Shown here: positions 20,094 to 34,852 of the stretch, piece after piece
Layout of the letters: the number at the start of each line of letters is the position of its first letter
Position numbering within the stretch: position 1 is the first letter of the stretch
Notes under the pieces: model-generated
Seen by the model: only the letters and a program-made list of their open reading frames with translations
Told to the model about the DNA's origin: nothing
The model's database searches: none
From: a virus
Taxonomy: Duplodnaviria > Caudoviricetes
Virus record (IMG/VR): IMGVR_UViG_2897748404_000006
Coordinates: 4,730 to 68,729 of that record
Length of the DNA stretch: 64,000 nt
Reading direction: 5' to 3' (one strand)
Position numbers and translations under genes: made by a program

Positions 20094-20891
20094 CTAAGCT
20101 GTTTTACGGCTCACTGTCTTTTTTGCTTTGCTTCTTACGGGTCTTGACGCAGTAGAGAGTCTTTGAATTCTCTTATTGATCTCAAGAAAAAGATCATTGC
20201 CTTTATCGTCAACGATGTAATCAACAACCGTGGCTACTTGTTTTTTACCTAGTGTGATAGGCATAACAATTTCCCGCGTATCTCCCCAAACAACATTTGT
20301 TTTACTTGGGTCTACAGAGAGAATGTTATTACTAAAAGCAAGCATCACGTAATATGCTGTTTCTGTTTTAGGATCACGCAAAGCTTTTAATACCCTGTCA
20401 GGGTCTTTTTGCGCTTGTTTATAACAGATTAGTTTTTTCTTGGAAGGTGTAAAATATGCTGCATTTACCGTACTGCTTGTCAAGGCTTGTGCTAACGCAG
20501 AATAATCTTCTAATTCTCCTAAAAGCGTCTTAACTTCGTCAACTTTTTCTAATGCTGCTAACTCTGCCACTGCTTCCGCTTCTGGATCATCAAGTTTAAA
20601 AACTGTGTTGTATTCGGGATGATTTTCTAAATACTCTATAAGTATTGAGTCGCTTTTGTTTACGCTTAGTTTGCCCTCTTCAAACCACAACTGTTTTACT
20701 TTTGGCTCGATCTCTTTTGGGTAATCTTCTTTCCAAATAGAGTGTCCCCCCATAACATAAATCATTTGACGTAACCCAATGCTTTTACCGTCTACAATTC
20801 GATTTTTAAAAACATTATTTGTTCTAAGCTGCCAACTAATAGGTTGTTTTTTGCTTTTTAAAACATAATATCTTACTGCTTCATTTTCCAT
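20094..20891 (-). CDS. Conserved capsid-adjacent virion/assembly protein
   Basis: FEEGKLSV...L.EYLENHP motif; directly after the MCP as in crAss-like phages. Confidence 0.55.
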   Translation of the reverse strand: MENEAVRYYVLKSKKQPISWQLRTNNVFKNRIVDGKSIGLRQMIYVMGGHSIWKEDYPKEIEPKVKQLWFEEGKLSVNKSDSILIEYLENHPEYNTVFKLDDPEAEAVAELAALEKVDEVKTLLGELEDYSALAQALTSSTVNAAYFTPSKKKLICYKQAQKDPDRVLKALRDPKTETAYYVMLAFSNNILSVDPSKTNVVWGDTREIVMPITLGKKQVATVVDYIVDDKGNDLFLEINKRIQRLSTASRPVRSKAKKTVSRKTA

Positions 20892-20902
20892 GTTTATATA
20901 TT

Positions 20903-20933
20903 AAAAAGGGGAAGGGTTTAAAGTTTCCCCTTT
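20903..20933 (-). terminator. Terminator/hairpin after the major capsid gene
   Basis: AAAGGGGAA...TTCCCCTTT inverted repeat with a T-run on the minus strand. Confidence 0.65.
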
Positions 20934-20942
20934 GTGTGTTGC

Positions 20943-22268
20943 TTATCGTTTTACTACGATAAATTCATTAGCCCCAACAACTTGGTTTGTTTGTTCAGAG
21001 ATATATTGAACTTCCATTTTGTCCTCTCTGATTTCAGTACCAGGTAATCCAAATATTTTAGTTCGGATTTGTCTGTTTACGTCCCCTTGTTGTCTGTATC
21101 TAATACAGATATATGGCGCTGCTTCTTTCGATCCTGTCTCGTTGGTAACTTCTCTTTCTCCCGCAGGCACAAATAATGCGGCTACGTTAGTTTGCAGGAA
21201 GTTTGCGCCCCCCATAACTGTAGGATCATTTAATAGTTTCCAATCTGTTAAGTGGAAAGAAATACCGTTTCGGCTAAAAGATTCAAAGTCTAAATGAATC
21301 GCAAGGTCTTTGGAGTTGTTAAACACCCCGTAGTTTGCGCCAGTATCAGCATATCTATTTACTGCTCCTAAGATGTTACTCATTAGGATTCTTTGGTCTT
21401 GGTCACACCATCCTGTATATGAAGTCGCGTCGCCTTGTCTTCTAATACGCTTAGTATATGCATCGATTTCGTCAAGGGTTCTTATGTAGTCATTTCCTAC
21501 ATTTCCTCGTTCCTCTACAATCGGAACAATACCATTCATCCCGCCTAATCCTGCGGTGTCTGCTGCTGAACCTGACTCTGCTCTTTTACTAAAGATGTGC
21601 GTTAATTCTTGTTTGTTCTGGAATTTAATACGGTTACGTTCCAGTTCGTAACTATACCACATATCTTGCCCTTCAGGGGTAGAAAGCCACGTGGCATGAG
21701 CCATGTCACTCTCCGCAACATCGTAGAATTCTTTGATTATGTGTGTGTAGTTCGTATAAATGTCTGGATCGTAAGTATACCCTTGGGTAAACCCTGCTGT
21801 CCCTTTTCCCCACTCACTTGAGAAAATAGAAATGTTTACGTTTCCAGTAAAAGAAAACGCTCCTGCCTCTCTGTTGGCAACAACAAATTCCGAAGTACTA
21901 TTTACGGCTGTTACAACCCCTTGTGCTTCGGTTGTTCCATCAGAGATTAAAATAGCGTCATTCACCCTTATGTTACTTGCTGCTCCACCAGAAGTAGTAA
22001 ACGTACTTCCTGCTACAGTAACATCGGTTAAAAAATTCATTAAACGGGATTGCTCACCGTGTAATACAACATCAGAGTTATAGGCTTTTTCTGCTCCAAC
22101 GATTTTACAGAAACCAGTAATTAAACCGTTACCGTATCGTGGGTGCAAACCCAAAACTTTGTTTGGTTCGTATTGTGTCGCATAATCATATTGCGATATA
22201 TAATTGAAGGATGTACGCAAGACTCCACTAGGAGACGTTACGACACCCGGATTTGGTAATAATGCCAT
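20943..22268 (-). CDS. Major capsid protein (HK97 fold)
   Basis: 441 aa after the scaffold gene; SEWGKGT, NYTHIIKE.Y.V..SD, DWKLLNDPT motifs as in Bacteroidota podovirus MCPs. Confidence 0.85.
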   Translation of the reverse strand: MALLPNPGVVTSPSGVLRTSFNYISQYDYATQYEPNKVLGLHPRYGNGLITGFCKIVGAEKAYNSDVVLHGEQSRLMNFLTDVTVAGSTFTTSGGAASNIRVNDAILISDGTTEAQGVVTAVNSTSEFVVANREAGAFSFTGNVNISIFSSEWGKGTAGFTQGYTYDPDIYTNYTHIIKEFYDVAESDMAHATWLSTPEGQDMWYSYELERNRIKFQNKQELTHIFSKRAESGSAADTAGLGGMNGIVPIVEERGNVGNDYIRTLDEIDAYTKRIRRQGDATSYTGWCDQDQRILMSNILGAVNRYADTGANYGVFNNSKDLAIHLDFESFSRNGISFHLTDWKLLNDPTVMGGANFLQTNVAALFVPAGEREVTNETGSKEAAPYICIRYRQQGDVNRQIRTKIFGLPGTEIREDKMEVQYISEQTNQVVGANEFIVVKR

Positions 22269-22280
22269 CGTGTTTTAATT

Positions 22281-23501
22281 TTACGGGTTAAATGGAAATT
22301 TAACAGAGAACCCGCCACTTGGACGAACTCCCACCTCTCCGTAACCATTCTTCGCTTTTGGCTCTGTTGGTTTTGGATTGGTTGTAAAATCGATGTTTCG
22401 TTCTTCTTTTAATACACTATTCACACCTAAACTATAGGCTTGTTGAACCATGCTTTTTTGTACTTTTTCCCAATTTTTCGGATTCCCAAAAAACAAAGCC
22501 TGATTAAGTTCTTTGTGTTTTAATCCTCCCTCTTCGTTTATGTATGGTAACAGCAACTTATCTAAGTCATTTGACCCTGCCAACATTTCTTGTTTGTCTG
22601 GATCGGTAAAATCATAGTTAAGTTTATGTGTCTTATTACCTGTTGCATCGGATATTACTAAATCAATTTCCACTCCCTTTAATTCACTAACCGCTTGGCT
22701 GCTTGATTGTAGATACTCTTCTCTTAGTTTTTGATGTTCTTCCTTAGAAATTTGCTGACCACCAATAGTAATAGTCTCACCATTCGGTTGAGATTTTTCA
22801 GTAGGTTTTTCAGTTTTCTCTAAAGGAGTAAGGTATTTTTCTTGCTCTGCTTTTAATTCATTCTTAAAAGTATTCGCAAGTACTTTTAAACGTAGTTTAT
22901 CTTTATGTTCTAAGTCGTCAAGGTCTTCTGTATCAACCCCAAGTTCTTGAGATAATAATATTCTTAAATCTTCTGTGTTTAGATTGATGCCTTTATTATC
23001 ATTTTTGATCTTATCAAAGGCTAATTGCATATCACTTTTATTATCGTGATTTTCATTTAGTTTGATCCAATCCTGCATCCCGCGACCAGTTTCCTTTTTG
23101 AAGTTTAAAAACTTCTGTGTCTCTTCGTCATATTCGGGTTGCACTTCCTTTACAACTTCTTTTTCAATTTCTTTTGTTAAAGATTGGTTGTACTCTTCAA
23201 TTGTTTTAAAAGAGGTGTTGCTTTTTTTGTTTAGGAAGTTTAATATTTCGGCTTCTTTATCTACTACAGGCGTAGGACTTCCTACATCGTTGTTTTCTTG
23301 TTCTGGTTTTTGCTCTGGTTCTGCCTGTGGTTCAGGTGTTGGAGTTTCTTCTTGCTGTGGTTCTGGCGTTGGTGGAGGTGTTGGCTCTGACTCATTAGTC
23401 GGCTCTGATTGTGGTGTGTCTGCAACTTTTTCAGGAGTAATTACCCCGTCAAAATCTCCAGTTTCCATTTTATCAAAATCATATGATACTCCAATAGCCA
23501 T
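22281..23501 (-). CDS. Capsid scaffolding protein
   Basis: Acidic P/E-rich N-terminus, FLNFKKETGRG..DW motif, immediately upstream of the MCP. Confidence 0.7.
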   Translation of the reverse strand: MAIGVSYDFDKMETGDFDGVITPEKVADTPQSEPTNESEPTPPPTPEPQQEETPTPEPQAEPEQKPEQENNDVGSPTPVVDKEAEILNFLNKKSNTSFKTIEEYNQSLTKEIEKEVVKEVQPEYDEETQKFLNFKKETGRGMQDWIKLNENHDNKSDMQLAFDKIKNDNKGINLNTEDLRILLSQELGVDTEDLDDLEHKDKLRLKVLANTFKNELKAEQEKYLTPLEKTEKPTEKSQPNGETITIGGQQISKEEHQKLREEYLQSSSQAVSELKGVEIDLVISDATGNKTHKLNYDFTDPDKQEMLAGSNDLDKLLLPYINEEGGLKHKELNQALFFGNPKNWEKVQKSMVQQAYSLGVNSVLKEERNIDFTTNPKPTEPKAKNGYGEVGVRPSGGFSVKFPFNP

Positions 23502-23525
23502 AAGTTTATCTTATATAATGTCTTA

Positions 23526-23533
23526 CAAATATA
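23526..23533 (-). promoter_or_regulatory. Bacteroidota sigma70 -7 element (TATATTTG) for the capsid operon
   Basis: Matches TAnnTTTG on the minus strand, 25 bp upstream of the scaffold ATG. Confidence 0.55.
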
Positions 23534-23861
23534 GATAAAATCTATTGTAATTCAAATACTCATAGATTATTCTTATATACATAAAGGTATCGGGTGATCA
23601 AAATGAATTATGGTTTTCCGTAAAGAAAATTACGGTATAACCTTACAAAAAATGAGGGTTTTTTGCATTTTAATTTATTGTATTACAGACATTTAACAAT
23701 TTATTTTTTTAATTATTCATTTCAAAAAACTGAAATCTGACGTTTTGCAGGTTAATATTTTGTTAAAAATGTGGAAAAAACCACCAAATTTGCCAAAAAA
23801 ATCGGCGAAATTACACCTAAAATAGGAGAAATACTATGGTGTTTTTACAGAAATATTTCTA

Positions 23862-23869
23862 TAGTTTTG
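23862..23869 (+). promoter_or_regulatory. Bacteroidota -7 element (TAGTTTTG) upstream of the lipopeptide gene
   Basis: Matches TAnnTTTG. Confidence 0.45.
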
Positions 23870-23940
23870 CTTGTAAATCAATGCTTTGGAAGTATTGAAT
23901 ATGAAACATAAAGAATCCTTAAATTTTAAAAATTTAAACT

Positions 23941-24108
23941 ATGAGAAATTTGCCAATTTATTTAAAAGCTATTTTCCTATTTTTAACCATCACTATTTTA
24001 ACAAGCTGTGAATCTGAATCTCTAAATGAAGAAATAGGAATAAATGAACAAGATACATTCCAAATTGACAAAGACGAACTACAACACCCAGACGACAGGG
24101 GAAACTAA
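23941..24108 (+). CDS. Small lipoprotein/peptide precursor (55 aa)
   Basis: Below the ORF-track cutoff. MRNLPIYLKAIFLFLTITILTSC-ESESLNEEIGINEQDTFQIDKDELQHPDDRGN: signal peptide II with lipobox LTSC and an acidic tail. Confidence 0.75.
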   Translation: MRNLPIYLKAIFLFLTITILTSCESESLNEEIGINEQDTFQIDKDELQHPDDRGN

Positions 24109-24679
24109 TATTATAATAATTATACTTACTATAGGTGCAATAGTAGCTGCTATTGCACCTTTTTTACATATTTTATGTTCAAAAGAATCTAAAATAGAAC
24201 TTTTTGGATTTAGAAATGCAAGAATGTTTTTCTATGCAATTGGTTTGCCCGTCACACTTTTAATTAGTTCAATTATACTATCCTATATTTCCAACTTTAT
24301 TGGAATCAAAAAAATAAATCAAGCAGTCAGGAGTATTGCTTTTATTTTTCTTTCAGTCTCTTTCTACTATATCGTATGGACATTTTGGGCTAAAGCGGAT
24401 TTTCCACCAATAGTATACTATGGTATGATAATCTTAATTGCTTGCTCATTTGGTTTTTGTATGAATAAATTTCTTAGATATATATCCACCAGTACGAAGA
24501 GACTATTAGAGATATCAAACAAAATTCCTAATCTAGATTTACGAATAAAAACAGTTAATGATATTGCTAATATAATGCCAGATGATAATGAAGACTTAGT
24601 TACCTATAAAACAATGGTTGATGTAACTGGCGACAATTTAAAAGAAACAATTACAGAAATTAAAAAAGACCTGAATTAA
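24044..24679 (+). CDS. Membrane protein with 4 predicted TM helices and a C-terminal soluble helical domain
   Basis: Four hydrophobic stretches; overlaps the peptide gene, so the true start is uncertain. Confidence 0.75.
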   Translation: MNKIHSKLTKTNYNTQTTGETNIIIIILTIGAIVAAIAPFLHILCSKESKIELFGFRNARMFFYAIGLPVTLLISSIILSYISNFIGIKKINQAVRSIAFIFLSVSFYYIVWTFWAKADFPPIVYYGMIILIACSFGFCMNKFLRYISTSTKRLLEISNKIPNLDLRIKTVNDIANIMPDDNEDLVTYKTMVDVTGDNLKETITEIKKDLN

Positions 24680-24888
24680 TGGCGAGCAAGAATAATCAAA
24701 ATAACTTGTCAAGAAAAGAACTTCTTAGAAAACTAAAACGTGAATTTGAAGAATCTGAAACCCTTCAATGGTTTATTGAAGTTGAAATTAAGAGGTTAAC
24801 TTCGAAAGGTAGCAACTATGAAGAAATAAAAAAACTAGCAAAACTTTCAGAAGAACAAATTTTTAAATCGAAAAAGAAAAAAGAATGA
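24679..24888 (+). CDS. Small basic helical protein (69 aa)
   Basis: Coupled (TAATG) to the membrane protein gene. Confidence 0.65.
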   Translation: MASKNNQNNLSRKELLRKLKREFEESETLQWFIEVEIKRLTSKGSNYEEIKKLAKLSEEQIFKSKKKKE

Positions 24889-24892
24889 GAAA

Positions 24893-25345
24893 TCAAGAAA
24901 CATCGTTGTTTTCCTTTAGACCTGTAAGATAACTAGAAATTATGTCATAAAATTTATCATCTTTTATGAGTTCTAGTAATTTTTGAGAAGCAAACGTATT
25001 GATCTCTTTACCAATTATATACTTAAATGCGCTCTGTATCTCTTCATCAACAGTTATTAAACGAATTAATTTATCCTTTAATTTTTCGTCGACATCATTT
25101 TCTTGTAGTATTACTTCTTTTGGCTTACTGATCGTCGTAGAATCAGAAACTTTTAGTTCACCTTTTATAAGCCAGTTAAGATTTACATCAGGGTAATATG
25201 ATATAAATTTTAATATGTTATCTTCTGTTATACCGCTCTTACTATCCAATACGCCCCTAGTAATACCAGTCTCTTTGTAAAACTTGTATTTTGTTATACC
25301 CTTGGCGGCAATATACTCAAGCATCCTTTTCTTTATAGACGACAT
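24893..25345 (-). CDS. CI/Xre-like phage repressor (Bacteroidota type)
   Basis: IKKRMLEYI..KGITKYKFYKETGITRGVL...I.KFISYYPDVNLNWLIKG HTH; no recognisable S24 peptidase domain. Confidence 0.85.
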   Translation of the reverse strand: MSSIKKRMLEYIAAKGITKYKFYKETGITRGVLDSKSGITEDNILKFISYYPDVNLNWLIKGELKVSDSTTISKPKEVILQENDVDEKLKDKLIRLITVDEEIQSAFKYIIGKEINTFASQKLLELIKDDKFYDIISSYLTGLKENNDVS

Positions 25346-25383
25346 TTTTTGTTCTTTTTATAGTATAAACAGATTATTTTGCT

Positions 25384-25447
25384 TATATTTGGTATATTAA
25401 CCAATATATTATAACAAACATACAACATATTACGGTTAAACCGTAAT
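25384..25447. promoter_or_regulatory. Divergent promoter/operator switch region
   Basis: Plus-strand TATATTTG at 25384-25391, minus-strand TATGTTTG at 25415-25422, and palindrome ATTACGGTT-A-AACCGTAAT at 25429-25447. Confidence 0.65.
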
Positions 25448-25496
25448 TTATTACTCATATTTAACAGTATCTACTAACAAATTTAACTAAAGAGTT

Positions 25497-25775
25497 ATGC
25501 TAAAAAAAGAAATATACAATAAAAATCGGGTATTATCTCCTTTTTACACTTCAACCATGTCATACGAGAATGATATTTTTGATCTTTTGCGTATCGACCC
25601 TAATCATTTTGAAGAATGTGTAAGAAACCATAAAACCTATGCGCTTTTATTAAGAAACTGGATTAAGGAGTGTTCGGAACAAAACACCCCTACTAATAAG
25701 GTTGCAAAAAATATAGTACAGTCAGGAGTATTATACTATATGGGATTAACACCTACCTTAAAATTTAGAACTTGA
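25497..25775 (+). CDS. Hypothetical protein (start may be the Met at 25557)
   Basis: ORF track; divergent from the repressor. Confidence 0.6.
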   Translation: MLKKEIYNKNRVLSPFYTSTMSYENDIFDLLRIDPNHFEECVRNHKTYALLLRNWIKECSEQNTPTNKVAKNIVQSGVLYYMGLTPTLKFRT

Positions 25776-25910
25776 TATAATAATCCTATCATAAAGCTAC
25801 TCACGGCTTAACGACAAAAACAATCGTCATATCATTTTTGAAGTATTGAATATACTATACACTCACATCTAGTATACATACTTCTATAGAACTTGATATA
25901 CATATAGGAT

Positions 25911-26141
25911 ATGAACAGATTAAATACAAGACAGCGAGTAGAAAGCTGGCTAAATACCTTTGGTCACTTGTTTAATAAAAATGCGCTTGAACGAGAAGTA
26001 AATATATCTAAAGGAATTTTACAAAAACACTTAAAATATGGCAGGAAGATAACCAACGAGGACATTATAGAGTTAAGAAAATTAATGAAAGAATTTAATG
26101 ACTTTTTTAAAAGAGTTGAGCACTCTAAAAAAAACCAATAA
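25911..26141 (+). CDS. Small Cro-like HTH protein
   Basis: NKNALEREVNISKGILQKHLKYGRKI resembles an HTH. Confidence 0.55.
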   Translation: MNRLNTRQRVESWLNTFGHLFNKNALEREVNISKGILQKHLKYGRKITNEDIIELRKLMKEFNDFFKRVEHSKKNQ

Positions 26142-26250
26142 ATCCTATTATATAATCTTATAAAGGAAGGCAGGAGTAATACCTACATAAGTGAGTTTGT
26201 GTATAACCCCAATTTAATTGCTCCTGTGTCCTTTTTAATTTAACTCTTAT

Positions 26251-26427
26251 ATGCTACCAGACCATTTAGACGAAATACCTCCAGAGTTTCTTTTTGCCAA
26301 CTTAAAGGATTTAAACATAGATATAGGCGAATTTATGTATCAGCTTTTAAACGATAATCCAGAAGCCATAAAAATTTATATTAACATATATATAAAACAT
26401 AATACTAGTAAGCCCCCAGAGTCTTAA
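26251..26427 (+). CDS. Small hypothetical protein (58 aa)
   Basis: Hand translation MLPDHLDEIPPEFLFANLKDLNIDIGEFMYQLL...; below the track cutoff. Confidence 0.4.
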   Translation: MLPDHLDEIPPEFLFANLKDLNIDIGEFMYQLLNDNPEAIKIYINIYIKHNTSKPPES

Positions 26428-26773
26428 CCGAACTCTAAATTTCATAAAACCTACTTATGCATTTTGGTATAAAAGGACATTTCCAGATTGTTCGTTTTAA
26501 AAAGCGTTACAGATATCTGTAAGGATTTTATTTAAAGTTGTTTTACTTTTACAATGAAAAACAACTTGTGTTTAATAACCTAAAAACCAAACCTATGAAA
26601 CAATACCAAATTACCCCTAAGTAGAATCGCATAATACCCCTTTTAAGACAATTAAATTATAGCGCTGTAATTATTGTTTTAAACTCTAAGGCTTTTCTAC
26701 TTTATCAAACCCAATATATTACTTCGGGCTTGATATTTTTTAACATAAATAGTAACCATTAAATTGACTCAAA

Positions 26774-28219
26774 ATGAACAAATCATTTGTATGGGGCTTG
26801 CTATGCATTGCCCTGACCTATGCGCAGACTTCTTTTGCGCAGGACTGTACTGAAAAAGTCGCAGTCGCCAAAGATTATTTACCTGTTTTAGAATTCCTAA
26901 CAACAGAGCACAAAAAAGATTTAAAGGAAAGCATTATTCAATGCGCTAACAACGGAAACGAAGAGGCGCAATACACTATTGCAGTCCTTAATCTTTCAAT
27001 TAACCCAAGTGAAGGGCAACAAAAACTTTCTTTTACAACTATTAAGCAAAGGGCTGAAAGTGGAGATACTTCCGCGTTTGGAAAACTTGCTATGTTGTAT
27101 AAAAAAGGAATAGGAACAGACGTGAATTTAACTGAATCATATAAGTGGTTTGATAGAGCCGCAGGAGATGGCGATTCGTTTTCTACGTATGCATTAGGTT
27201 ATTTTCAAATGAAAGGTCTTGGAGAGGCAAGACAAGACTATTCAGGCGCACAAGATTGGTTTCAATCTGGAGATGAACCAATGGCTGAACTTTGGTTTTA
27301 TGTTATGCGATATTTTGGCTATGGCATTTCAGCAAACAAACCACAAGCAATTAACGCTCTTAATGCGTTGAATACCCCTGAAAGCAATACATTGGCTCAT
27401 TATTTAAGAAACCAATACGTTGAACCCTCTTCCCTGTCAAGTATAGAGGATTTTGTTATAAAAAACATGGATAACCCATTGTATAACAATCCTACAGGAA
27501 CAGCTTACGACACTAGCACCGACTTAAAAAATGAGTACACAGGGAAGTTAGTTGAAATGGACTGGAAAAAACAAACACCAACCAGAGTAATAAACGAGTT
27601 CAAATTAAAAATCTTAGATAGAGAATCATACTATCCCAGATACTCTATAACCATAGGAACAACAACTAAGACAGGTGCATTAAAAATTAATTCAGGAAGC
27701 CTACAATTAGAAAATCTTACTTTTCCTATTGAGGAATTATACAGAACAAATCCAGACAGGGATTTTGTAACGCTTAAACTTGGAGGAATAGACTTGAGTT
27801 ACGTTAAAAGCACACCTACAGAACCAAGTGAAGCCAAAGAAGTGGGACGTTTACACGCCTCTATTGTAGAGTACGATGACGAACCCGCACCACCTATATT
27901 CTTATTCCTCGATGCAGTAGATAAAGAACCAGAAGTACCGACACCACCAACACCTCCCGCAGTTGCAGAAATCACAAGTGTTTCACCTAATCCAACAAGA
28001 GGTAGAATTACGGTTCATTATTCAAAACCGGAAATAGCGGACTCATATTTAGTTTTAGATCAAGGAGCGAGAGAACTTGCAGTTTCAAAAATAAACACTA
28101 AAACAGGAGATTTTCAACATTCGTTTGACGACCTACTCTTCTATCCTTCAGGAGTTTATTACGTGAGGCTTTTTATAAATGGCAGAGCTGTAGACACTAA
28201 ACAAGTTGTTAAACAATAA
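26774..28219 (+). CDS. Secreted Sel1-repeat protein with a T9SS type-A C-terminal sorting domain
   Basis: Signal peptide; Sel1 repeats (LAMLYKKGIGTDVNLTESYKWFDRAA, LGYFQMKGLG..QDY..A.DWF); CTD VSPNPTRG...YPSGVYYVRLFING...TKQVVKQ. Confidence 0.9.
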   Translation: MNKSFVWGLLCIALTYAQTSFAQDCTEKVAVAKDYLPVLEFLTTEHKKDLKESIIQCANNGNEEAQYTIAVLNLSINPSEGQQKLSFTTIKQRAESGDTSAFGKLAMLYKKGIGTDVNLTESYKWFDRAAGDGDSFSTYALGYFQMKGLGEARQDYSGAQDWFQSGDEPMAELWFYVMRYFGYGISANKPQAINALNALNTPESNTLAHYLRNQYVEPSSLSSIEDFVIKNMDNPLYNNPTGTAYDTSTDLKNEYTGKLVEMDWKKQTPTRVINEFKLKILDRESYYPRYSITIGTTTKTGALKINSGSLQLENLTFPIEELYRTNPDRDFVTLKLGGIDLSYVKSTPTEPSEAKEVGRLHASIVEYDDEPAPPIFLFLDAVDKEPEVPTPPTPPAVAEITSVSPNPTRGRITVHYSKPEIADSYLVLDQGARELAVSKINTKTGDFQHSFDDLLFYPSGVYYVRLFINGRAVDTKQVVKQ

Positions 28220-28231
28220 AACTATCCTATT

Positions 28232-30691
28232 ATGAAATCTATATATAAAATTTTGATAATAGGTATAGTGTTCCTATTATCAGCTAACAGTCACGCTCAA
28301 TTTGAATCAAAAACAGATATTACAGATTTTGATGAATACGAAGCTAAAGCAGGTCTAAACGCCTGTTATTGTGATTCAGAATTAGCTTACAATTTACTTC
28401 TACAACGATTAGACCAATTAGAAGGTCAAAGAAAACAGGAGTGGTTAGAAGGGCAACAGGTAAGGCTTAAAAATGAAATTGACCGAAGACTCAACGAAAC
28501 ACATCCTAATTATGCAGAAGCGGAAAAACAGCTTTTAAAAAGACATTACAAAGGCGATAATGATGCAATTATAAATCCATTAGCAGAACAAGCTAGCAAA
28601 AACTCTTTTGAGGACAAGAGAAAAGTTCAACAAAGAAGAGTTGAATATAATGTTTTAACTCATAGAGACGATGTAAGCGATATATTAGCTGATTATACTT
28701 TTGGTGATTTAACAAGCAAAGGGGTTAAGATCAAGGGTATGACACGCAGTCAAATTTTTGATAGAAGAAGAGAAATTCTTGATGAAATAAACCACACCTA
28801 TAAACCCTCTGCAAATGCATCGTCTAAATTTTGGGATGGACTTAAAAAAGTTATTGACCAAGAATATATTTTAAACCGAATGGCTGAATTAGCCAAAGCA
28901 CGTTATGACTCTTATAGCGTAGAGAACAGAGTAAAAGTAATAACAAAACTACTTGTAGAGCGAAATTTCGGTAATGGATGGGGAGCATATAATGAGGTGC
29001 CCTTGGTTTATAACACTAATGAGCATAACTATAGAGATTTAGCCCTTATTAGAGCCGATCAATTAGGAAATGTACAAAGCATCCCTCCAACAGAGCCAAC
29101 AGGTGCAGAGTCAATAGCAGCTCACGCTTTAACTAATATTAGCCCAAGCGTTTTTGCTAACCTATACCAAAACGAGAAGTATAAAGACATAACAAGTGAA
29201 ATAAACAAGTTCTTTAACAGATCAAACTATCACTTTGCTTCAATACGATCATTACGTAATGTAATAAACTTTCAAGAAAGCTTATTGCCACGAGTAAACG
29301 CAAGTGATGTAAGTAGCTATGGGATACCTCCAGTATATCAGTCTGCTTCAAACACAGAATTAGCAATGTCGTTTCGTGCAGATCGTGACGCACCAAATTA
29401 CCACACATGGAGAGGAGTTGGAAACGTATTAGCAGAAATGTACGAAACCGACTTTTTACCAAACAGCTTGCAACAAGAAGGGTTTATAATAGCAAAGATT
29501 TTTAATAGTAATGGTATTAGTGTTCCTGATTGGGTTACAAACCAAGCCCTTGGAGAAATATTTGATTTTAACAAAACTCCATATGGCGGTAAACCCGGGT
29601 CTAATTTTTATTATCGTTTTGAAGTTATATTTAAACCCTCTATTGGTATACAGCTTTGGAATCAAAGTATAAATATAAATAACTTATTTGATGATCCTAT
29701 ACATATCGAAGGGGCTTCGGCACTAGCTAGAGGTGAATCTTTTAATTTTGCTTTTAGAAAAAAAGTATATGCTTTTTCTAATGCCTTAAATCTTAATACA
29801 AGTCAAAGAGATTGGCTAATTGATGATAAAAACAGGAAAGAATTTGATATTTTATATGACTTTTTTGAAAATAATGGATACAATGTTGATAATGTAGATT
29901 TTGGTAGGCAGTCAATAGTAACATTTATGAATGAAAACATGATACTTCCTGTAATTTCTTTCGATCAAAATTTTCCAAGATCAACTTACATGAAAGAGAT
30001 TGTCAGAATGAATAAATGGATCAGACTTTTCGGTAATCGAGAATTAGGACAATTTATTGAAGCTATAACACCAAACCTTCCAAGCCTGACAAATCAAGAA
30101 TTGTATAATTTATATAGCTTTACTTGGGAAGCACATAAAGACCTTAAATTAGCATATTATAGAATTCCAATTGAAACAGTTGTGGTCTTCCAACCATTTG
30201 TAGAACTTATTCTTTTTGATACAGGAATTGGGGTAGCGATTGCATTATTAGAAAAACTCCCCGCAGCAATTAGATCGGCAGAGATACTAGCAATAATTAA
30301 TCGTTTAAGATCAGCGTCTCAATTTGGAGAATTAAAACACGCCAAAACATTTGGAATTAACACATACAATTCATTAGTTAGCACATTTAAAGCTTTGGGG
30401 TTGTCAAGGTTAAAAATGGGGGTTCAATTTCATCATTTATTTGAACAACGATTTGTGACACAATTAAAAGCATTACTAGGAGCAAATACAGGGAAATGGG
30501 AAAGTGTAGTTTTAACAGTAGAAGAACACCAAAAAATTACCCAAGCATGGAGAAGAATAATTGGGTATAATGGACAAGCAGTAGGAACAAGTGGAAAAGT
30601 CACAGCTACAGCAACACTAGCAGACATTCAAGCAGCAGCTAAAGAAGTATATAAAAATTATCCAGAAATATTAAAAGCACTAGGACTATGA
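28232..30691 (+). CDS. Secreted polymorphic toxin with a C-terminal His-rich (HNH-like) nuclease domain
   Basis: Signal peptide; C-terminus QFHHLFEQRF...VLTVEEHQKITQAWRRIIGY...AAKEVYKNYPEILKAL resembles toxin tips seen on RHS proteins; followed by a coupled gene. Confidence 0.7.
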   Translation: MKSIYKILIIGIVFLLSANSHAQFESKTDITDFDEYEAKAGLNACYCDSELAYNLLLQRLDQLEGQRKQEWLEGQQVRLKNEIDRRLNETHPNYAEAEKQLLKRHYKGDNDAIINPLAEQASKNSFEDKRKVQQRRVEYNVLTHRDDVSDILADYTFGDLTSKGVKIKGMTRSQIFDRRREILDEINHTYKPSANASSKFWDGLKKVIDQEYILNRMAELAKARYDSYSVENRVKVITKLLVERNFGNGWGAYNEVPLVYNTNEHNYRDLALIRADQLGNVQSIPPTEPTGAESIAAHALTNISPSVFANLYQNEKYKDITSEINKFFNRSNYHFASIRSLRNVINFQESLLPRVNASDVSSYGIPPVYQSASNTELAMSFRADRDAPNYHTWRGVGNVLAEMYETDFLPNSLQQEGFIIAKIFNSNGISVPDWVTNQALGEIFDFNKTPYGGKPGSNFYYRFEVIFKPSIGIQLWNQSININNLFDDPIHIEGASALARGESFNFAFRKKVYAFSNALNLNTSQRDWLIDDKNRKEFDILYDFFENNGYNVDNVDFGRQSIVTFMNENMILPVISFDQNFPRSTYMKEIVRMNKWIRLFGNRELGQFIEAITPNLPSLTNQELYNLYSFTWEAHKDLKLAYYRIPIETVVVFQPFVELILFDTGIGVAIALLEKLPAAIRSAEILAIINRLRSASQFGELKHAKTFGINTYNSLVSTFKALGLSRLKMGVQFHHLFEQRFVTQLKALLGANTGKWESVVLTVEEHQKITQAWRRIIGYNGQAVGTSGKVTATATLADIQAAAKEVYKNYPEILKALGL

Positions 30692-31539
30692 TAAAAAAAC
30701 ACAGCATATTTGCGAATTGGAGAAAAAAAGATGTTGACTTTTTAGCAAATCTTGGAATCACAATTGAAGAAGGTTATTTTTCTTTTCTTATTGAAGAGGG
30801 GTCTGTTTACAACGAAATAATAAAGCATTACACTGAAAATAAAGGTTTTTTTGTAAACAGAACACCTAAAGAATTTTCAAGCAAATTTGCTGTGGTTGAG
30901 TTTTCTATGGAAGAATTGGACAATTCAAAGTATTTCGTTTTACAAAACATAGGAAAACCAAAAGGGTATCCCTTTCCTAAAAACAACTTTGACAAAATGA
31001 CCGAAGAAACATATACAAATTATTGTAAAAAATGTGAATCTAATCGTCAACAAAAAGCTCCTTTTAAAATAGAAAAAGAGCCTAAATTGTCTAAAAACCA
31101 AGTAAACTTTTCTTTCCATACAATTTTTGATGAAATGTTTTTTAATATAGATTTTTTCCAAGAGGTTTTAAAACCTCTTGGATTAAAATCTAAAGAAGTT
31201 TTAATTGGGAACACAGGTGTTCCTTCTAAAAATGTTGTTCAGCTCATAATTCCAGAAGCAGAAAGCTCTTTGTTATTAGATAATTCTGTATATGATATAA
31301 ATACCTCCTGTGAAATTTGTGATACAAAAAAATATACTCAACAAATTTTAGGATTCATGCCTTCATTTAAAACGGACTTTGATTTCTTAATATGCAAAAC
31401 GAAAGAATTTTTTGGAGAAACAGAAACCCGTCAGGCTATGAGGCGAATAATCATATCTAAAGAATTTTGTGACATATTAGTTAAACATAAGATAATTCAT
31501 TATAACACAAATGAAATTTACCCAATAACTAATAAATAA
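30688..31539 (+). CDS. Putative immunity protein with two CxxC motifs
   Basis: ATGA overlap with the toxin gene; CKKC and CEIC motifs; T.EFFG...R.IIISK.F motif; no signal peptide. Confidence 0.6.
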   Translation: MIKKHSIFANWRKKDVDFLANLGITIEEGYFSFLIEEGSVYNEIIKHYTENKGFFVNRTPKEFSSKFAVVEFSMEELDNSKYFVLQNIGKPKGYPFPKNNFDKMTEETYTNYCKKCESNRQQKAPFKIEKEPKLSKNQVNFSFHTIFDEMFFNIDFFQEVLKPLGLKSKEVLIGNTGVPSKNVVQLIIPEAESSLLLDNSVYDINTSCEICDTKKYTQQILGFMPSFKTDFDFLICKTKEFFGETETRQAMRRIIISKEFCDILVKHKIIHYNTNEIYPITNK

Positions 31540-31604
31540 ATATTATAAAAAACCATATTCGAAGAACAATAAGAAAACTCTTATATAACCTAAACAAATA
31601 ACAA

Positions 31605-32159
31605 ATGAAAAAAACAATTCTATTATTAAGTATTATAACCGCAATGGTAATGTTTGGATGTAAATCTGATGATGAAGAAGTGCCAGAAAAATTTGATCAT
31701 TTTGATTATACTCAAGAAGAAAAAAACGCAGAAATTGAAAAGATAAGGAACTACATTAAAGACAACAGCATTGAAGGAATGACAGAAACCGAGGATGGTA
31801 TGTTTTATCGTATCGAAAAAAAAGGAGAAGGACTAACTGGTGAAAATTTTCAAGATGTAACTGTTTCTTTTGAGATAAAAATTACAAGTACAGGAGAAAT
31901 TGGCTTTGGACATGGTGATAAAGATATCTATCCTAATGGTGCAATATGGGATTTTTTTGGTTTTGAAGGTCTTTATGAAGGAATAGAAGACAGTATTGAA
32001 CTAATCAATGAAGGAGGTGAGATTTTTTCGATTATTCCTCCTTATATGCATATTGGCAAAAATGACCCTAATACTGGAGAAGATATATTTGAAGAACAAT
32101 ACGATGAAATTGTGACTCTTAAACTAGAATTAAAGCATCTTATACGATATAGAAATTAG
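31605..32159 (+). CDS. FKBP-type peptidyl-prolyl isomerase-like lipoprotein
   Basis: Lipobox MFGC; I.NYIKDN, TEDGMFYRIEKKGEG, G....IELINEGG...IIPPY motifs. Confidence 0.75.
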   Translation: MKKTILLLSIITAMVMFGCKSDDEEVPEKFDHFDYTQEEKNAEIEKIRNYIKDNSIEGMTETEDGMFYRIEKKGEGLTGENFQDVTVSFEIKITSTGEIGFGHGDKDIYPNGAIWDFFGFEGLYEGIEDSIELINEGGEIFSIIPPYMHIGKNDPNTGEDIFEEQYDEIVTLKLELKHLIRYRN

Positions 32160-32280
32160 CATCTCTCTAAATATACTTAACAAAGAGGATGACCAATGGA
32201 CTTTAGCAGACAAAAAATCTCTTGGAATGTATTAAGACAAACCACAAAACCCCATATAGTTGAATAGTCCCAACTATATT

Positions 32281-32318
32281 AAAGGCGGGGTTAACTCCCC
32301 CTAGTTCCCCGCCTTTTT
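32281..32318 (+). terminator. Rho-independent terminator ending the island
   Basis: AAAGGCGGGG...CCCCGCCTTTTT. Confidence 0.75.
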
Positions 32319-32380
32319 ATTCCTTTAACAAGAGTTAATTACCCCCTCAACCTTTGCGTATAGACAATCTATACGCTACT

Positions 32381-32413
32381 AAAAAGGGAAGTTGTTGTGT
32401 ACTTCCCTTTTTT
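32381..32413. terminator. Bidirectional terminator after the portal gene
   Basis: AAAAAGGGAAGT...ACTTCCCTTTTTT immediately after the portal stop. Confidence 0.75.
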
Positions 32414-34852
32414 CTATTGCTGCGGTGTTGTTCTTGGTTGAAGAGACTGTGCGGCATCCTTTATATTAAATCTGTTTTCAAAATTGATAGGCGCAGAATT
32501 TTCTTGTTGTCTTTGAGAGATCATTTTACTCATGTTTGTATCAATCAAATCCTGCCTTTTGTCTTTACGATCTTCCTTGTACATTGTCTCTTGTTCTCGA
32601 CCTAAAGACTTTAATTTTTCTACAAAAATCTCAACTTGATATTCGCGTTCTTCTTTGGCTTGGTTGACTTTGTTTAGTTCTGCCTGTTTCATAACCTCAA
32701 TCATTGCCTTTTCCTTTTCTAGTTGAACGGCTAATTGTGTCTCAAACTGCATGGTTTCTCGCTTGGCTTGTTCCGCTTGCATTGCTGCTTGTGCATTGCT
32801 TTGCGATTGGGCTTGTATTTGTCGCATTTGTTCTTCCTCTTTCTCCTTCATGCTCTTTTTTCTGCGATAGGTCAAATATGTTTCTGCCTGTTTGATATTC
32901 ATTAGCGCAATACGTTCGGCTTTGATCTTATCGTCTACAGTTATAGAACCTTCTTGTAGGGCTATTCCCATACTTTCCTTAAACTCCTGCATTTCTACTT
33001 CGGTAGGTAGCATTTGTATGATAAAACCGAACTCATGCAAATGGCGATCTTCCAAGGCTCTTACGGCTTCAAGGTTTTGAGAACCTACGGCATTAGTGTA
33101 TACATCTTTTAGGTCTTTGCCAAACCGGAAAATATCACCAAGGCGTGTACTAATGGTTTCACAGGTTTTTTTAGTGATCTCCATAGAAGCGTCAACGATC
33201 CCCTGTGTAGCGGTATTAGATTGCAGGATTTGCATTTGTTGTACTCCTACAAGGGTATCGCTTGGTGTACTCCCGTCACGGGCTGCATTTACTCCTGTTA
33301 AGTCTCGGATAATATTATAGTAGTGTAGCCAAGCTCGTACTAATTGCTCAAGCTTTGTGGACTGCGCACTTGTTGGGGTTCTAAGGGCAGCACGATCTTT
33401 TATCCCTTCGTCGCCTAAATCCGCACGGGTACTAAAGACGATACCTTTAGAGTTAAACAGGTTTAAAGCATCTTCCCACGTAAGCTTTTTCCCGCTTTTC
33501 GTGCTTAGTTCTGCCAGCATATCAATATCAATTTCTACACCGTCTGGGCGTAACTCTGCGATAAGTTGCTGCGTCTTTAAGTGTATACGTTGCATCTGTC
33601 CGTCAATAGGCTCGATAGTGTCTACAAAAGAGTTTAGTCTATTGTTATAAATATTGCTAGATCGTGCAATAAAACAAGGCATTGCACGGTTGTTTTTGTC
33701 TCTGGCAAGGATTTCACTTTCTTTATATCCGTAGATATAATCAGAACCCATAATAAAATTCCCCTCGTACCATGTGTCTAGTGTTTTGGCAACACGTTCA
33801 TTCTCGCTACGTTTAGAGGTATATGTAGATTCACGTTTAACCATTGTGAAACTACCATGTTTGTTTTTGCGCTTTTTATAGGTTATGTTTTTAGAGGTTC
33901 TAAAAGTGAAGCGTAGCACGTTGATTTTGTAATTTAAAACCTCGTTTATTTTTACTCTCCTAAAGTCTAAAATAGTTTGCCCTTGGTTCGTGTTTTGGGT
34001 TGCGTATTTCTCTGCTATTTTTCTAAGTGTCGCCTCGTCATAACCAGACTCTTGTTGTATTTGGCTCAAGGTTATGGTATCTACTTCAGCAAAATAATGA
34101 GCGTCACTAAAATCTTTCTTACGCACGTAGGAGTGTATGAAGTTTTCTATGTCTACATACTTGACAACAACCCCGTTATATTTATCGGTATAGACACGTA
34201 CAACGCCCAAAGCATTTTCTACGATATCCTTATCCACCATTTCCTTAATTAACTTCCAGTTGTTTGTGCTTTTTACGTATTTAATTAGCAGTTCTTCGGC
34301 TATCTCTATTTTAGGCTTAAAGGCTAACTCGGTATGCATTTCGATATCCTCATTATCCTCTGGGATATATCCTTCATCCCTTAGATCGATCCCTAACATT
34401 TGGTTTGCCTTTTCTAGCATAGGGGCGGCAACCATTTTCTTTTTTAAACCTTCTTTAAATTTCTTTTTCTCTAAGGCTGCGGTGCTGTCTATTGCGGAAA
34501 TATCAAGGCGGTACAAATCTTCACGAATACCGTTAGCCACGATATCCACGAACTTACCCGCAATATTAAGGGGCGACCAATCCATGTTCATGTAGTTTAA
34601 ATCCCCTTGATTTCTTGCGGCTATATTTTTATCACGGTCAATACTTTGTTTCCCTCTGGAGAACAAGCGATTTTGCACAATACGTTCCCTACGGTTTTTG
34701 TAATCCGCACCGTTACTAATCATGCCCCCGTTAAACCACTCTAAAGAGATTGCTTTAGCCGCCTGTAGCCCGTATGCGTCCCCTTTTTTTTCTTCGTCGG
34801 ATGCTAACGGGTCAGGGAAATAATCCCTTTTCATTTTTGTTTCCATGTCCAT
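32414..34852 (-). CDS. Portal protein
   Basis: 812 aa directly after TerL; YMNMDWSPLNIAGKFVDIVANG and IRDLTGVNAARDGS motifs, plus a Q-rich C-terminal barrel. Confidence 0.9.
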   Translation of the reverse strand: MDMETKMKRDYFPDPLASDEEKKGDAYGLQAAKAISLEWFNGGMISNGADYKNRRERIVQNRLFSRGKQSIDRDKNIAARNQGDLNYMNMDWSPLNIAGKFVDIVANGIREDLYRLDISAIDSTAALEKKKFKEGLKKKMVAAPMLEKANQMLGIDLRDEGYIPEDNEDIEMHTELAFKPKIEIAEELLIKYVKSTNNWKLIKEMVDKDIVENALGVVRVYTDKYNGVVVKYVDIENFIHSYVRKKDFSDAHYFAEVDTITLSQIQQESGYDEATLRKIAEKYATQNTNQGQTILDFRRVKINEVLNYKINVLRFTFRTSKNITYKKRKNKHGSFTMVKRESTYTSKRSENERVAKTLDTWYEGNFIMGSDYIYGYKESEILARDKNNRAMPCFIARSSNIYNNRLNSFVDTIEPIDGQMQRIHLKTQQLIAELRPDGVEIDIDMLAELSTKSGKKLTWEDALNLFNSKGIVFSTRADLGDEGIKDRAALRTPTSAQSTKLEQLVRAWLHYYNIIRDLTGVNAARDGSTPSDTLVGVQQMQILQSNTATQGIVDASMEITKKTCETISTRLGDIFRFGKDLKDVYTNAVGSQNLEAVRALEDRHLHEFGFIIQMLPTEVEMQEFKESMGIALQEGSITVDDKIKAERIALMNIKQAETYLTYRRKKSMKEKEEEQMRQIQAQSQSNAQAAMQAEQAKRETMQFETQLAVQLEKEKAMIEVMKQAELNKVNQAKEEREYQVEIFVEKLKSLGREQETMYKEDRKDKRQDLIDTNMSKMISQRQQENSAPINFENRFNIKDAAQSLQPRTTPQQ

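Follow-up and report, generated by a model that had tools for sequence, protein, structure and literature searches.

Introduction

To our knowledge, many repressors of Bacteroidota prophages and mobile elements lack a RecA-cleavable S24 domain, and how they are switched is mostly not known. Among the closest described systems, ComX/ComP and AgrD/AgrC place a peptide gene beside that of a polytopic sensor, and ComP belongs to the HisKA_3 class of kinases; the receptors of RRNPP systems are tetratricopeptide-repeat (TPR) proteins; in Escherichia coli the lipoprotein RcsF is coupled to IgaA and the Rcs system; and the CI repressor of phage 186 has a small counterpart, Tum. RRNPP systems are described as a propeptide with an intracellular receptor in Firmicutes (PMC10075063), Qtip as a quorum-sensing-activated antirepressor of a Gram-negative phage (bioRxiv 10.1101/2019.12.16.877910), and NlpE as a lipoprotein that reports defects of lipoprotein trafficking to the outer membrane (PMC6538781). 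Here we analyzed a window of 64,000 nucleotides, bases 4730-68729 of the 68.7-kb record IMGVR_UViG_2897748404_000006, which is classed as a provirus. In this window, the genes of a 55-aa lipoprotein precursor (lipo55), a four-transmembrane (4-TM) protein (TM211) and a 69-aa protein (s69) run toward the gene of a phage-type repressor (rep150). An earlier note on this DNA had interpreted these genes as a possible lysis-lysogeny communication module and a counterpart of arbitrium. We tentatively propose instead that lipo55, TM211 and s69 form an envelope-sensing relay controlling rep150, to which we assign a little less than an even chance.

Results

The four-gene arrangement and its conservation in Aquimarina

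The four open reading frames (ORFs) predicted in the earlier note were confirmed (Table 1), together with the way in which they are joined. The lipobox gene overlaps the 4-TM gene by 65 nt in the +1 frame, the ATG of s69 shares one base with the TM211 stop (TAATG), as expected for the proposed coupling, and the stops of s69 and rep150, which meet tail-to-tail, are 4 nt apart. A word-index search with TM211 identified 15 proteins at E<=0.01 among 232 candidates, the named ones being from Aquimarina; alignment A1 comprises 14 of these 15 proteins (the identical P0001 was omitted) and the window protein. The names of the homologues place the host in Aquimarina, family Flavobacteriaceae. A scan of Aquimarina with one genome per species yielded 10 loci with 11 TM genes. 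The synteny that the note had suggested looking for in other Bacteroidota was found in this set, since the same four-gene order recurs in nine of the ten other Aquimarina loci. The tenth locus (L005) contains two TM paralogues and neither a lipoprotein gene nor rep150. Wherever the lipoprotein gene is present (10 loci), it overlaps the TM gene by 56-95 nt with the +1 offset. The median pairwise ratio of nonsynonymous to synonymous substitution rates (dN/dS) was 0.36 for lipo55, 0.28 for TM211 and 0.18 for s69 (45, 45 and 27 usable pairs, respectively, of 45), which points to purifying selection on all three genes. Because the order recurs in nine of ten loci, dN/dS is low and the overlap is kept, we take the arrangement to be more than a product of chance. 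A keyword literature search, which was not exhaustive, found no description of the cassette.

Within the overlap (24044-24108), the GAx-rich codons of the acidic lipoprotein tail are read in the +1 frame as the Lys/Thr/Asn-rich cytoplasmic N-terminus of TM211; the same DNA encodes an acidic exported tail plus a basic 'positive-inside' segment.

A lipoprotein/4-TM pair in Flavobacteriaceae

A profile of A1 was compared with 1.84 billion representative proteins, giving 314 proteins at E<=1e-3, 136 at <=1e-10 and 9 at <=1e-30, most of which are matched only over the 4-TM part (positions ~1-160). Alignment A4 was then composed of the window protein and 61 of the 150 listed matches, which we chose mostly from the top-ranked and longer ones. 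When 301 Flavobacteriaceae genomes were searched with A4, 21 matched, with 25 loci, one of which repeats L003; a second sample (9 of 401 genomes matched) added three loci. The resulting 39 family genes are the window gene, the 11 genes of the 10 Aquimarina loci, 24 from the 21 matching genomes of the first sample and three from the second.

Of the 39 family genes, 36 are preceded by an overlapping lipobox ORF of 44-72 aa (26 identified by script, 10 read from translations), with a Cys ending the hydrophobic stretch in each (...ILTSC in the window). The exceptions are L030, where a signal peptide without the Cys is found, and the two L005 paralogues, which have no upstream lipoprotein gene. These counts firmly indicate that the lipoprotein and 4-TM genes belong together as an obligate pair, and the pair appears to be a conserved and hitherto undescribed unit of Flavobacteriaceae. 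No match to it was found in Pfam, NCBIfam, PHROGs or PADLOC. The PHROGs likewise gave nothing significant for lipo55, TM211 or s69 taken singly, the ESM Atlas returned unnamed Bacteroidota clusters only, and none of 28 pattern matches to TM211 in viral contigs was confirmed.

Lipo55 is predicted to be lipid-anchored because of its lipobox. It ends in IDKDELQHPDDRGN, with the tail motif QIDKDELQHPDDRGN, and the Aquimarina lipoproteins share, besides the lipobox, the conserved tail NEEIG.NEQ..F..QIDKD[ED][VI]Q.P.D. Most tails of the wider family contain aromatic-x-[IT]-[DE]-[KR]-x-x-[VI]-x-x-P-[GD], from which L037 and L038 depart. In L044 and L051 the motif occurs twice in tandem (e.g. ...YGIDKDKVVPPGEKGRQQ repeated), suggesting that it is a discrete functional unit. 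Tails such as CPPNDRNCNGIPDNQE and PGDKDGDGKPDKP presumably resemble calcium-binding thrombospondin-type-3 repeats. The mature N-terminus of lipo55, C-E-S-E-S-L-N-E-E, is acidic, yet is not one of the published surface-export motifs, which for Bacteroidota lipoproteins are given as SDDFE, SDDDD or K-(D/E)2 (PMC5080379). The residues after the lipid-bearing Cys may be called loosely similar to such a signal.

TM211 resembles the input domain of sensor kinases

The AlphaFold2 (AF2) model of TM211, built on the 62-row alignment with a predicted local distance difference test (pLDDT) score of 91.6, has helices at residues 20-44, 59-83, 89-114, 122-177 and 183-210, and bears out the four TM segments proposed in the earlier note. 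In the model, TM4 extends into a cytoplasmic helical hairpin at the position where kinases have the DHp domain, and the periplasmic loops are short (~14 and ~7 residues). The only other canonical start of the gene is a TTG at 24065. A Foldseek search with the model against the PDB found nothing at E<=1e-3.

A Pfam scan of the 62 A4 proteins detected output domains directly after the 4-TM domain in three of them: HisKA_3 with HATPase_c in P0061 (359 aa; source name, Tenacibaculum sensor histidine kinase) and in P0088 (394 aa), and a GerE/LuxR helix-turn-helix (HTH) domain in P0049 (217 aa). Residues ~20-168 of TM211 match the kinase N-termini of P0061 (profile 2e-23) and P0088 (2.9e-17), and BLASTP with TM211 found P0061 at 1e-20 (31% over 150 aa) and P0049 at 9e-26. 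No Pfam match to HisKA/DHp or HATPase_c was obtained in TM211 itself, which ends at residue 211; in the BLASTP alignment, the kinase ELHD aligns with its IMPD. We thus regard TM211, from its sequence, as a kinase-less relative of a sensor input domain. Homology to the input domains of these two HisKA_3 kinases and of the LuxR-type regulator makes a sensor role of the 4-TM domain plausible. The second genome sample contained no kinase-fused form. In the 46 metagenome loci found with P0061, no ORF matched the 4-TM profile, and the five inspected were TPR-type kinases. An A4 profile search limited to proteins of 833-2375 aa gave no match and is uninformative about fused forms.

These features bear on whether the pair could be part of a lysis cassette of the spanin or holin kind. 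In two-component spanins, the i-spanin has one TM helix and a periplasmic coiled coil, the o-spanin gene lies in or overlaps the 3' part of its gene, and both are near the holin and endolysin genes. The overlap of a lipoprotein gene with a membrane-protein gene recalls Rz/Rz1, and an endolysin-like gene directly precedes the cassette in four Aquimarina loci (L003, by scan, phrog_2649, 1e-37; L006, L008 and L011, by eye). A lysis function is nevertheless scarcely credible: the lipoprotein gene comes first, which is the reverse order; in place of a single TM helix and a periplasmic coiled coil, TM211 shows four TM helices with the C-terminus in the cytoplasm; the window has no lysis gene next to the pair; and relatives are fused to kinases.

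The small partner and the convergent repressor

A small gene on the same strand starts no more than 70 nt from the TM stop in 29 of the 39 family loci and encodes 47-98 aa, or 192 aa in the case of a fusion in L005. Thirteen of these 29 partners are s69-like, and for 12 of the 13 the adjoining TM protein carries VN.IA.IMP / YK.MVD as a C-terminal motif. The TM-coupled gene of L005 encodes an s69-like N-terminus, with the residues T28, L29, W31, E36, R39, Y47 and K51 invariant in alignment A3, fused to an AraC HTH_18 domain (5.8e-11). This fusion gene stands upstream of o92-, o58- and Sel1-like genes, where other loci have s69 and rep150, and the locus reads as a replacement of the small partner plus repressor by a partner domain fused to an activator. 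The position of the AraC fusion would therefore link the trio to transcription of that operon. Searches of PDB sequences with the rep150 and s69 profiles gave matches at chance level, or ones due to the AraC part of L005.

The model of rep150 (pLDDT 72) places a three-helix bundle in the C-terminal domain. Its Pfam HTH matches are below threshold and PF07022 does not match; the N-terminal 60 aa are 48-65% identical to the HTH of the S24-bearing repressors P0033 and P0034. The N-domain of the AF2 model aligns over 61-67 columns at ~2 Å to C.AhdI, SinR, 434 and P22 c2 and at 2.5 Å to ImmR, and the fit list also includes TP901-1 CI, the Foldseek E-values being weak for so short a domain. Together, sequence and model point to a lambda-type HTH in the N-terminus of rep150. 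As the earlier note had stated, the repressor has no autocleavage peptidase domain; PF00717 was found neither in rep150 nor elsewhere in the 68.7-kb record, and rep150 would therefore need a route of inactivation other than RecA. The full-length rep150 family was confined to Aquimarina in our search (19 matches among 57 candidates).

A small convergent gene is located at -25 to +24 nt relative to the partner stop in 19 of the 39 family loci. Eleven of these genes are of the rep150 type; of the other eight, three have an HTH_3 domain above the Pfam cut-off, four a sub-threshold HTH and one none. The remaining 20 loci have no such convergent gene, and some of them are flanked by housekeeping-like genes (by eye). 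These comparisons firmly indicate that the cassette is repeatedly arranged tail-to-tail with small, often HTH-type regulators.

Promoters, palindromes and a hairpin inside the TM211 gene

The -7 box nearest lipo55 and the CTGTAAATCAAT following it occupy the same position in all 10 Aquimarina loci (TAnnTTTG, or TAnnTTTA/TAnnTTAG). The sequence TAnnTTTG, which we take to be the consensus of the Bacteroidota -7 box, is not enriched in the window overall (86 found vs 92 expected), and three copies lie in the 151-nt spacer between rep150 and o92, the first gene of the divergent operon. A scan of the window for sigma-70-type promoters remained at chance level. The palindrome in this spacer recurs ~88 nt from the rep start in 7 of the 10 Aquimarina loci, which makes the TTACGGTTAAACCGTAA palindrome a candidate rep150 operator. 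The degenerate second copy lies in the conserved leader upstream of lipo55 (Table 1), a region that could also encode a small RNA or act as an insulating terminator.

Two further repeated sequences were noticed in this region. The other loci do not share an 18-nt direct repeat (17/18 identical) whose copies are at 23885-23902, ~40-55 nt before lipo55, and at 25836-25853, ~60-75 nt before o76. The sequence TCGTCATATCA (25820-25835), ~80 nt before o76, is retained by most Aquimarina loci and is a candidate regulatory site of the divergent operon.

A terminator-like hairpin just past the lipo55 stop sits inside the TM1 codons of TM211, those for GAIVAAIAPFLH. Its stem is kept in all 10 lipoprotein-bearing Aquimarina loci via paired, protein-altering changes (GATVAAVAP, GVIAGAIAP, GAMIAIIAP, GAVIAITAP). 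The anchor motif could be located in 33 family genes, with six left unassessed and one duplicate removed. A strong hairpin that stops at the T-run (z<=-3.7 vs shuffles) is present in 20 of the 33, among them all 10 lipoprotein-bearing Aquimarina loci; the 13 others, which show no strong hairpin, include both lipoprotein-less L005 paralogues despite their retained APF[VL]HI. Covariation was measured on the ungapped alignment A5 of all 33 genes. The hairpin cells were paired in 71.7% vs 60.7% in shuffles, both sides had changed in 48 cells vs 22.4 in shuffles, and the covariation score was 0.358 vs 0.198 in shuffles, with 0 of 500 shuffles reaching 0.358 and slid controls at most 0.202; 9 of the 12 pairs show a compensatory change. 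No Rfam family matches the hairpin. Stem-loop, U-run and compensatory conservation appear to be those of an intrinsic terminator or attenuator. In lantibiotic prepeptide and pilin operons, leaky terminators after the structural gene provide more transcript of that gene than of those behind it. The hairpin is, similarly, a candidate attenuator or RNA-stabilizing 3' stem that would keep lipo55 more abundant than TM211 and s69.

The cassette in an insert of a tailed prophage

In the window, structural genes of a tailed phage on the minus strand flank the cassette and its cargo on both sides, the scaffold-like and major capsid protein (MCP) genes on the left and the portal and large terminase (TerL) genes on the right. 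Since L102, the single related viral contig recovered (capsid 44% identical), has one 105-aa ORF alone between portal and scaffold, we read 23502-32413 as an insert in the structural module. No direct repeats marking the ends of the 8.9-kb insert were found, the best pair being 15 nt long with one mismatch (23438/32336). A comparison of the DNA of 20500-28400 with 50,697 phage records gave no match, and the MCP of the window was not found in the five cassette-bearing Aquimarina genomes searched.

This setting bears directly on the communication module of the earlier note, in which lipo55 or a fragment released from it would be sensed by TM211 and relayed by s69 to the master repressor of the prophage, with lysogen density setting the choice between lysis and lysogeny. 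A gene for a ~50-aa exported peptide directly upstream of a polytopic sensor with HisKA_3 kinase relatives matches the ComX/ComP and AgrD/AgrC layout, an attenuator-like hairpin would give peptide in excess over the receptor, and the tandem tail motifs of L044 and L051 are like multi-copy pheromone precursors. In addition, rep150 could be the repressor of the phage, because no other CI-like repressor was found in the 68.7-kb record, only a weak HTH_3 at its far left end; tyrosine recombinase, serine recombinase, S24 peptidase and PF07022 had no match anywhere in the record. The second palindrome is also close, at ~130 nt, to the start of the leftward scaffold/capsid operon. Against these points, the cassette is not tied to phages: it lies here in an insert missing from the related phage, the operon divergent from rep150 runs into genes of secreted cargo, about half of the family loci lack a neighboring HTH gene and several stand among housekeeping-like genes. 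The peptide is by prediction anchored by a lipid, with no processing or export gene adjacent. The tail, for which the note had suggested a search for co-variation with the receptor, shows no pherotype-like diversification, its motif being conserved across genera with a dN/dS of 0.36. No RRNPP/AimR-type TPR receptor was found among the module proteins (Pfam, NCBIfam), which speaks against a counterpart of arbitrium; the Sel1/TPR-like protein of the cargo (26774-28219) appears to be exported, given its signal peptide (by eye) and weak type IX secretion system (T9SS) tail, and so would not be a cytoplasmic receptor. We therefore regard communication through the prophage repressor as improbable. 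The same low probability is given to signaling by a lipidated peptide, in which lipo55 would be overproduced, exported (perhaps on outer-membrane vesicles) and read by TM211 of sister cells, with an antirepressor turning the S24-less repressor off; if true, it would give the Bacteroidota their first peptide-based communication switch between cells or elements, with components that have no relation to those of arbitrium or Gram-positive peptide quorum sensing. What stands of the earlier proposal is the idea of a membrane receptor feeding a transcription factor, which agrees with the kinase/LuxR homology, the AraC fusion and the 19 of 39 convergent loci; a role as a lysis-lysogeny module is not supported.

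Two observations concern the remainder of the window: a RusA-like resolvase, recognized by eye (MSEISFKILGTPQAKQSARF...), is encoded at 49581-50024 (-), and an anti-restriction protein (phrog_2059, 8e-15) at 60837-61397 (+).

Cargo and other genomic contexts

Behind rep150, the divergent genes o92, o76 and o58, for which no significant Pfam match was obtained, lead into the cargo operon (Table 1), and the cargo behind o58 varies between loci. In L004, the homologue of the large cargo protein shares only the first ~540 residues with that of the window, and three small secreted proteins, paralogues of one another, are encoded after it; judged by eye, such an arrangement resembles a polymorphic toxin and its immunity genes. 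The cargo of L011 (9012-11447) contains by eye an Hcp-type type VI secretion protein and a large neighbor, and that of L012 (8555-12141) a GG-leader peptide with radical-SAM-like and ATP-grasp-like genes. As the cargo differs by locus in this way, one control cassette would front different competition-type cargos.

The release and immunity proteins of colicin systems include small lipoproteins and 4-TM proteins. Lipo55 and TM211 might likewise be accessories of the cargo, as immunity, release or secretion helpers comparable with bacteriocin immunity and lysis lipoproteins, and the secreted proteins downstream in the window and the Hcp-type or GG-leader clusters elsewhere would fit such a role. 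We consider it highly improbable, as the trio is constant where the cargo varies or is absent, the repressor stands between trio and cargo, and the 4-TM protein has the homology of a sensor domain.

The Aquimarina cassette occurs in three contexts, namely the tailed prophage, elements of ~24 kb with lysis genes, and islands without a seen phage gene. The ~24-kb elements of L003 (genome G001) and L008 (G005) have another HTH-like gene near the other end and, at the far end, a serine recombinase in G001 (L014:1990-3579) and a tyrosine integrase in G005 (L019:2052-3299), all by eye. No capsid, portal or terminase was recognized in them (PHROG scan, eight upstream ORFs), and they could represent a small tailless or otherwise undescribed phage type. 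The elements correspond to L013+L003+L014 (G001) and L018+L008+L019 (G005), and the endolysin of the former (L003:4945-5538, phrog_2649) is membrane-anchored. In G002, G003 and G004, no phage structural gene or integrase was seen within ~6 kb upstream and 20 kb downstream of the cassette, and the neighbors are host-like (by eye). A family of 160-aa proteins (MALENLIS...) is found with the cassette in four loci without visible phage genes (L004:4966-5448(-), L007:4956-5441(-), L009:4685-5176(+) and L005:7272-7763(+)); it is absent from the window and has no Pfam, PHROG or NCBIfam match.

The variety of contexts is also relevant to superinfection exclusion or lysogenic conversion, in which the lipoprotein and membrane protein would alter the envelope and block the entry of phage or DNA, the regulator being merely adjacent. 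T5 Llp, Cor of phi80 and N15 and Ltp of TP-J34 are small exclusion lipoproteins. A prophage-borne, separately promoted operon of a lipoprotein and an inner-membrane protein in a moron-like insert would be expected of such a system, and the endolysin-like upstream neighbor in 4 of 10 Aquimarina loci marks a frequent site of conversion genes. PADLOC, however, found no family (0) in any of the 10 proteins scanned, and no informative PHROG match was obtained. The fusions of the 4-TM domain to kinase/LuxR outputs and of the partner domain to an AraC HTH also disagree with it, as do pairs that stand among housekeeping-like genes with no mobile-element signature in their 1.5-kb flanks, and exclusion offers no reason why small genes, often of the HTH type, are tightly joined tail-to-tail with the cassette in 19 of 39 loci. 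Exclusion is thus unlikely, and the exclusion, cargo-accessory and lysis explanations account for fewer of the observations than a relay.

Table 1. Coordinates of genes, regulatory features and the insert within the analyzed window.
Feature	Position	Strand	Description
MCP	20943-22268	-	phrog_13704
Scaffold-like gene	22281-23501	-	phrog_16786
Insert	23502..32413	mostly +	control cassette and secreted-protein cargo; ~8.9 kb, between scaffold-like gene and portal gene of tailed prophage
Conserved non-coding leader	23610..23940	+	~330 nt, upstream of lipo55 in all 10 Aquimarina loci, whatever lies further upstream
Imperfect palindrome	23630-23646		degenerate second copy of operator-like site; -300 to -310 from lipo ATG, 4/10 loci, <=3 mismatches
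CTGACGTTTT	23737-23746		invariant-looking; in leader upstream of lipo55
Small leader hairpin	23771-23784		GTGG/CCAC in window, GCGG/CCGC elsewhere (compensatory); followed by T-run in most loci
-7 box TAGTTTTG	23862-23869	+	Bacteroidota-type; 72 nt before lipo55; then CTTGTAAATCAAT
lipo55	23941-24108	+	55-aa lipoprotein precursor; begins MRNLPIYLKAIFLFLTITILTSC..., lipobox LTSC, mature part 33 aa, acidic
TM211	24044-24679	+	4-TM protein, predicted N-in/C-in; cytoplasmic helical hairpin (residues ~140-210) in place of kinase
Terminator-like hairpin	24133-24166	+	12-bp stem and 4-nt loop at 24133-24160, then TTTTTT; 25 nt past lipo55 stop
s69	24679-24888	+	69-aa helical basic protein; translationally coupled to TM211; candidate adaptor or antirepressor
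rep150	24893-25345	-	lambda-type HTH (residues 1-62), disordered linker (65-84), three-helix C-terminal domain (87-147), as predicted
rep150/o92 switch region	25346..25496		paired -7 boxes and palindrome
-7 box TATATTTG	25384-25391	+	toward o92
-7 box TATGTTTG	25415-25422	-	toward rep150; ~30 nt from plus-strand box
Perfect palindrome ATTACGGTT-A-AACCGTAAT	25429-25447		operator candidate; adjoins paired -7 boxes
o92	25497-25775	+	homologue in 6/10 Aquimarina loci; divergent from rep150
o76	25911-26141	+	HTH-like by eye; homologue in 9/10 loci
o58	26251-26427	+	homologue in 5/10 loci
Sel1-repeat protein	26774-28219	+	Sel1 3.1e-8; Por_Secre_tail (T9SS sorting) sub-threshold; signal peptide by eye
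Further cargo	to 32159	+	819-aa protein (signal peptide by eye), then 283-aa and 184-aa proteins of no family
Portal gene	32414-34852	-	
TerL gene	34856-37096	-	

Discussion

The envelope-sensing relay is favored because the lipoprotein and 4-TM genes are paired, the 4-TM domain feeds kinases and DNA-binding domains in relatives, and the cassette is repeatedly joined to small, often HTH-type regulators. In this model, the cassette would be transcribed from its own promoter, and lipo55 would be made in excess over TM211 and s69 because of the terminator-like hairpin just past its stop. The conserved tail of lipo55, aromatic-x-[IT]-D-K-[DEK]-x-[VI]-x-x-P-[GD]-D, would be read by TM211, and lipo55 itself would be either a tethered co-sensor or a sentinel that reports on lipoprotein export or the state of the envelope. 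TM211 would then signal via its cytoplasmic helical hairpin by holding or releasing s69, and free s69 would act as an antirepressor on rep150. The output would be a switch of the o92-o76-o58 and secreted-protein cargo operon, plus anything else that is under the two palindromic operators. The binding steps are all inferred, as are the direction of signaling, the nature of the signal and the target of rep150.

Several observations weigh against this model. TM211 offers only its short periplasmic loops to a lipoprotein, and lipo55, if exported to the surface, could not normally touch an inner-membrane protein; L005 works without a lipoprotein. A recognized output domain was found in only 3 of the 62 scanned relatives. 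s69 has no detectable similarity to the C-domain of rep150 (hhalign) and no match to any solved or curated family. Since about half of the family loci lack an adjacent HTH, the link to the repressor is not intrinsic to the trio, and common ancestry confounds the way in which partner type, TM C-domain and repressor type go together. With 4 nt between them, convergent genes could affect each other through nothing more than transcriptional interference. For the hairpin, the structure came from the window sequence itself, and codon periodicity brings the slid controls at +/-3 up to 51% paired. As part of the relay, a wiring of lipo55, TM211 and s69 to rep150 in Aquimarina is a possibility that we place just below even.

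The cassette nonetheless offers a concrete candidate route for switching S24-less repressors, by way of a lipoprotein, a kinase-less sensor and a small cytoplasmic partner. The lipoprotein/4-TM pair is present in 21 of 301 sampled Flavobacteriaceae genomes and carries an unusual covarying hairpin in the TM1 codons of the overlapping gene. If the relay is real, it would add a new input domain to bacterial signaling and a new induction logic for elements with secreted, possibly antagonistic cargo.

Comparison with known systems

Arbitrium and other RRNPP systems resemble the locus in having a small exported peptide gene near a regulator, here on a prophage; they differ in that their receptor is an intracellular TPR protein, of which there is none in TM211, s69 or rep150, and in that the host here belongs to the Bacteroidota rather than the Firmicutes and the cassette also occurs outside phages. 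ComX/ComP and AgrD/AgrC share with it a ~50-aa modified exported peptide next to a multi-TM sensor, and TM211 relatives carry HisKA_3; unlike them, lipo55 has a lipoprotein signal peptide, no ComQ/AgrB-type gene is adjacent, TM211 has no kinase and there are no hypervariable pherotypes. The exclusion lipoproteins T5 Llp, Cor and Ltp are also small, prophage-borne and expressed from their own promoters, whereas lipo55 always comes with a sensor-type 4-TM gene, is also conserved where there is no prophage and gave no match in PADLOC or the PHROGs. The hairpin is comparable with the leaky terminators of lantibiotic prepeptide and pilin operons in that a stem-loop and U-run directly follow a small structural gene, the difference being that the stem-loop here lies inside the coding sequence of the next, overlapping gene.

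On the side of the repressor, SinI/SinR, MOR/CI of TP901-1, Qtip/cI of VP882 and Tum/CI of 186 likewise combine a repressor of an HTH and a helical C-domain with a small helical protein beside it, and the best fold matches of the rep150 model include SinR (1b0n, 3qq6) and TP901-1 CI (6tri, 3zhi). In contrast to these small antirepressors, s69 is co-translated with a membrane protein and has no sequence similarity to known antirepressors.

On the side of the envelope, NlpE/CpxA and RcsF/IgaA of E. coli also couple a small lipoprotein functionally to an inner-membrane sensor. They are not related to the cassette in sequence or fold, TM211 has neither a periplasmic domain nor a kinase, the lipo55 and TM211 genes overlap, and the output of the cassette is a phage-type repressor on a mobile insert. 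The logic of NlpE/CpxA, in which the lipoprotein engages the sensor when its export fails, is by analogy an attractive model for lipo55 and TM211, as the TM211 loops are short and the acidic residues after the lipobox Cys loosely resemble a surface-export signal.

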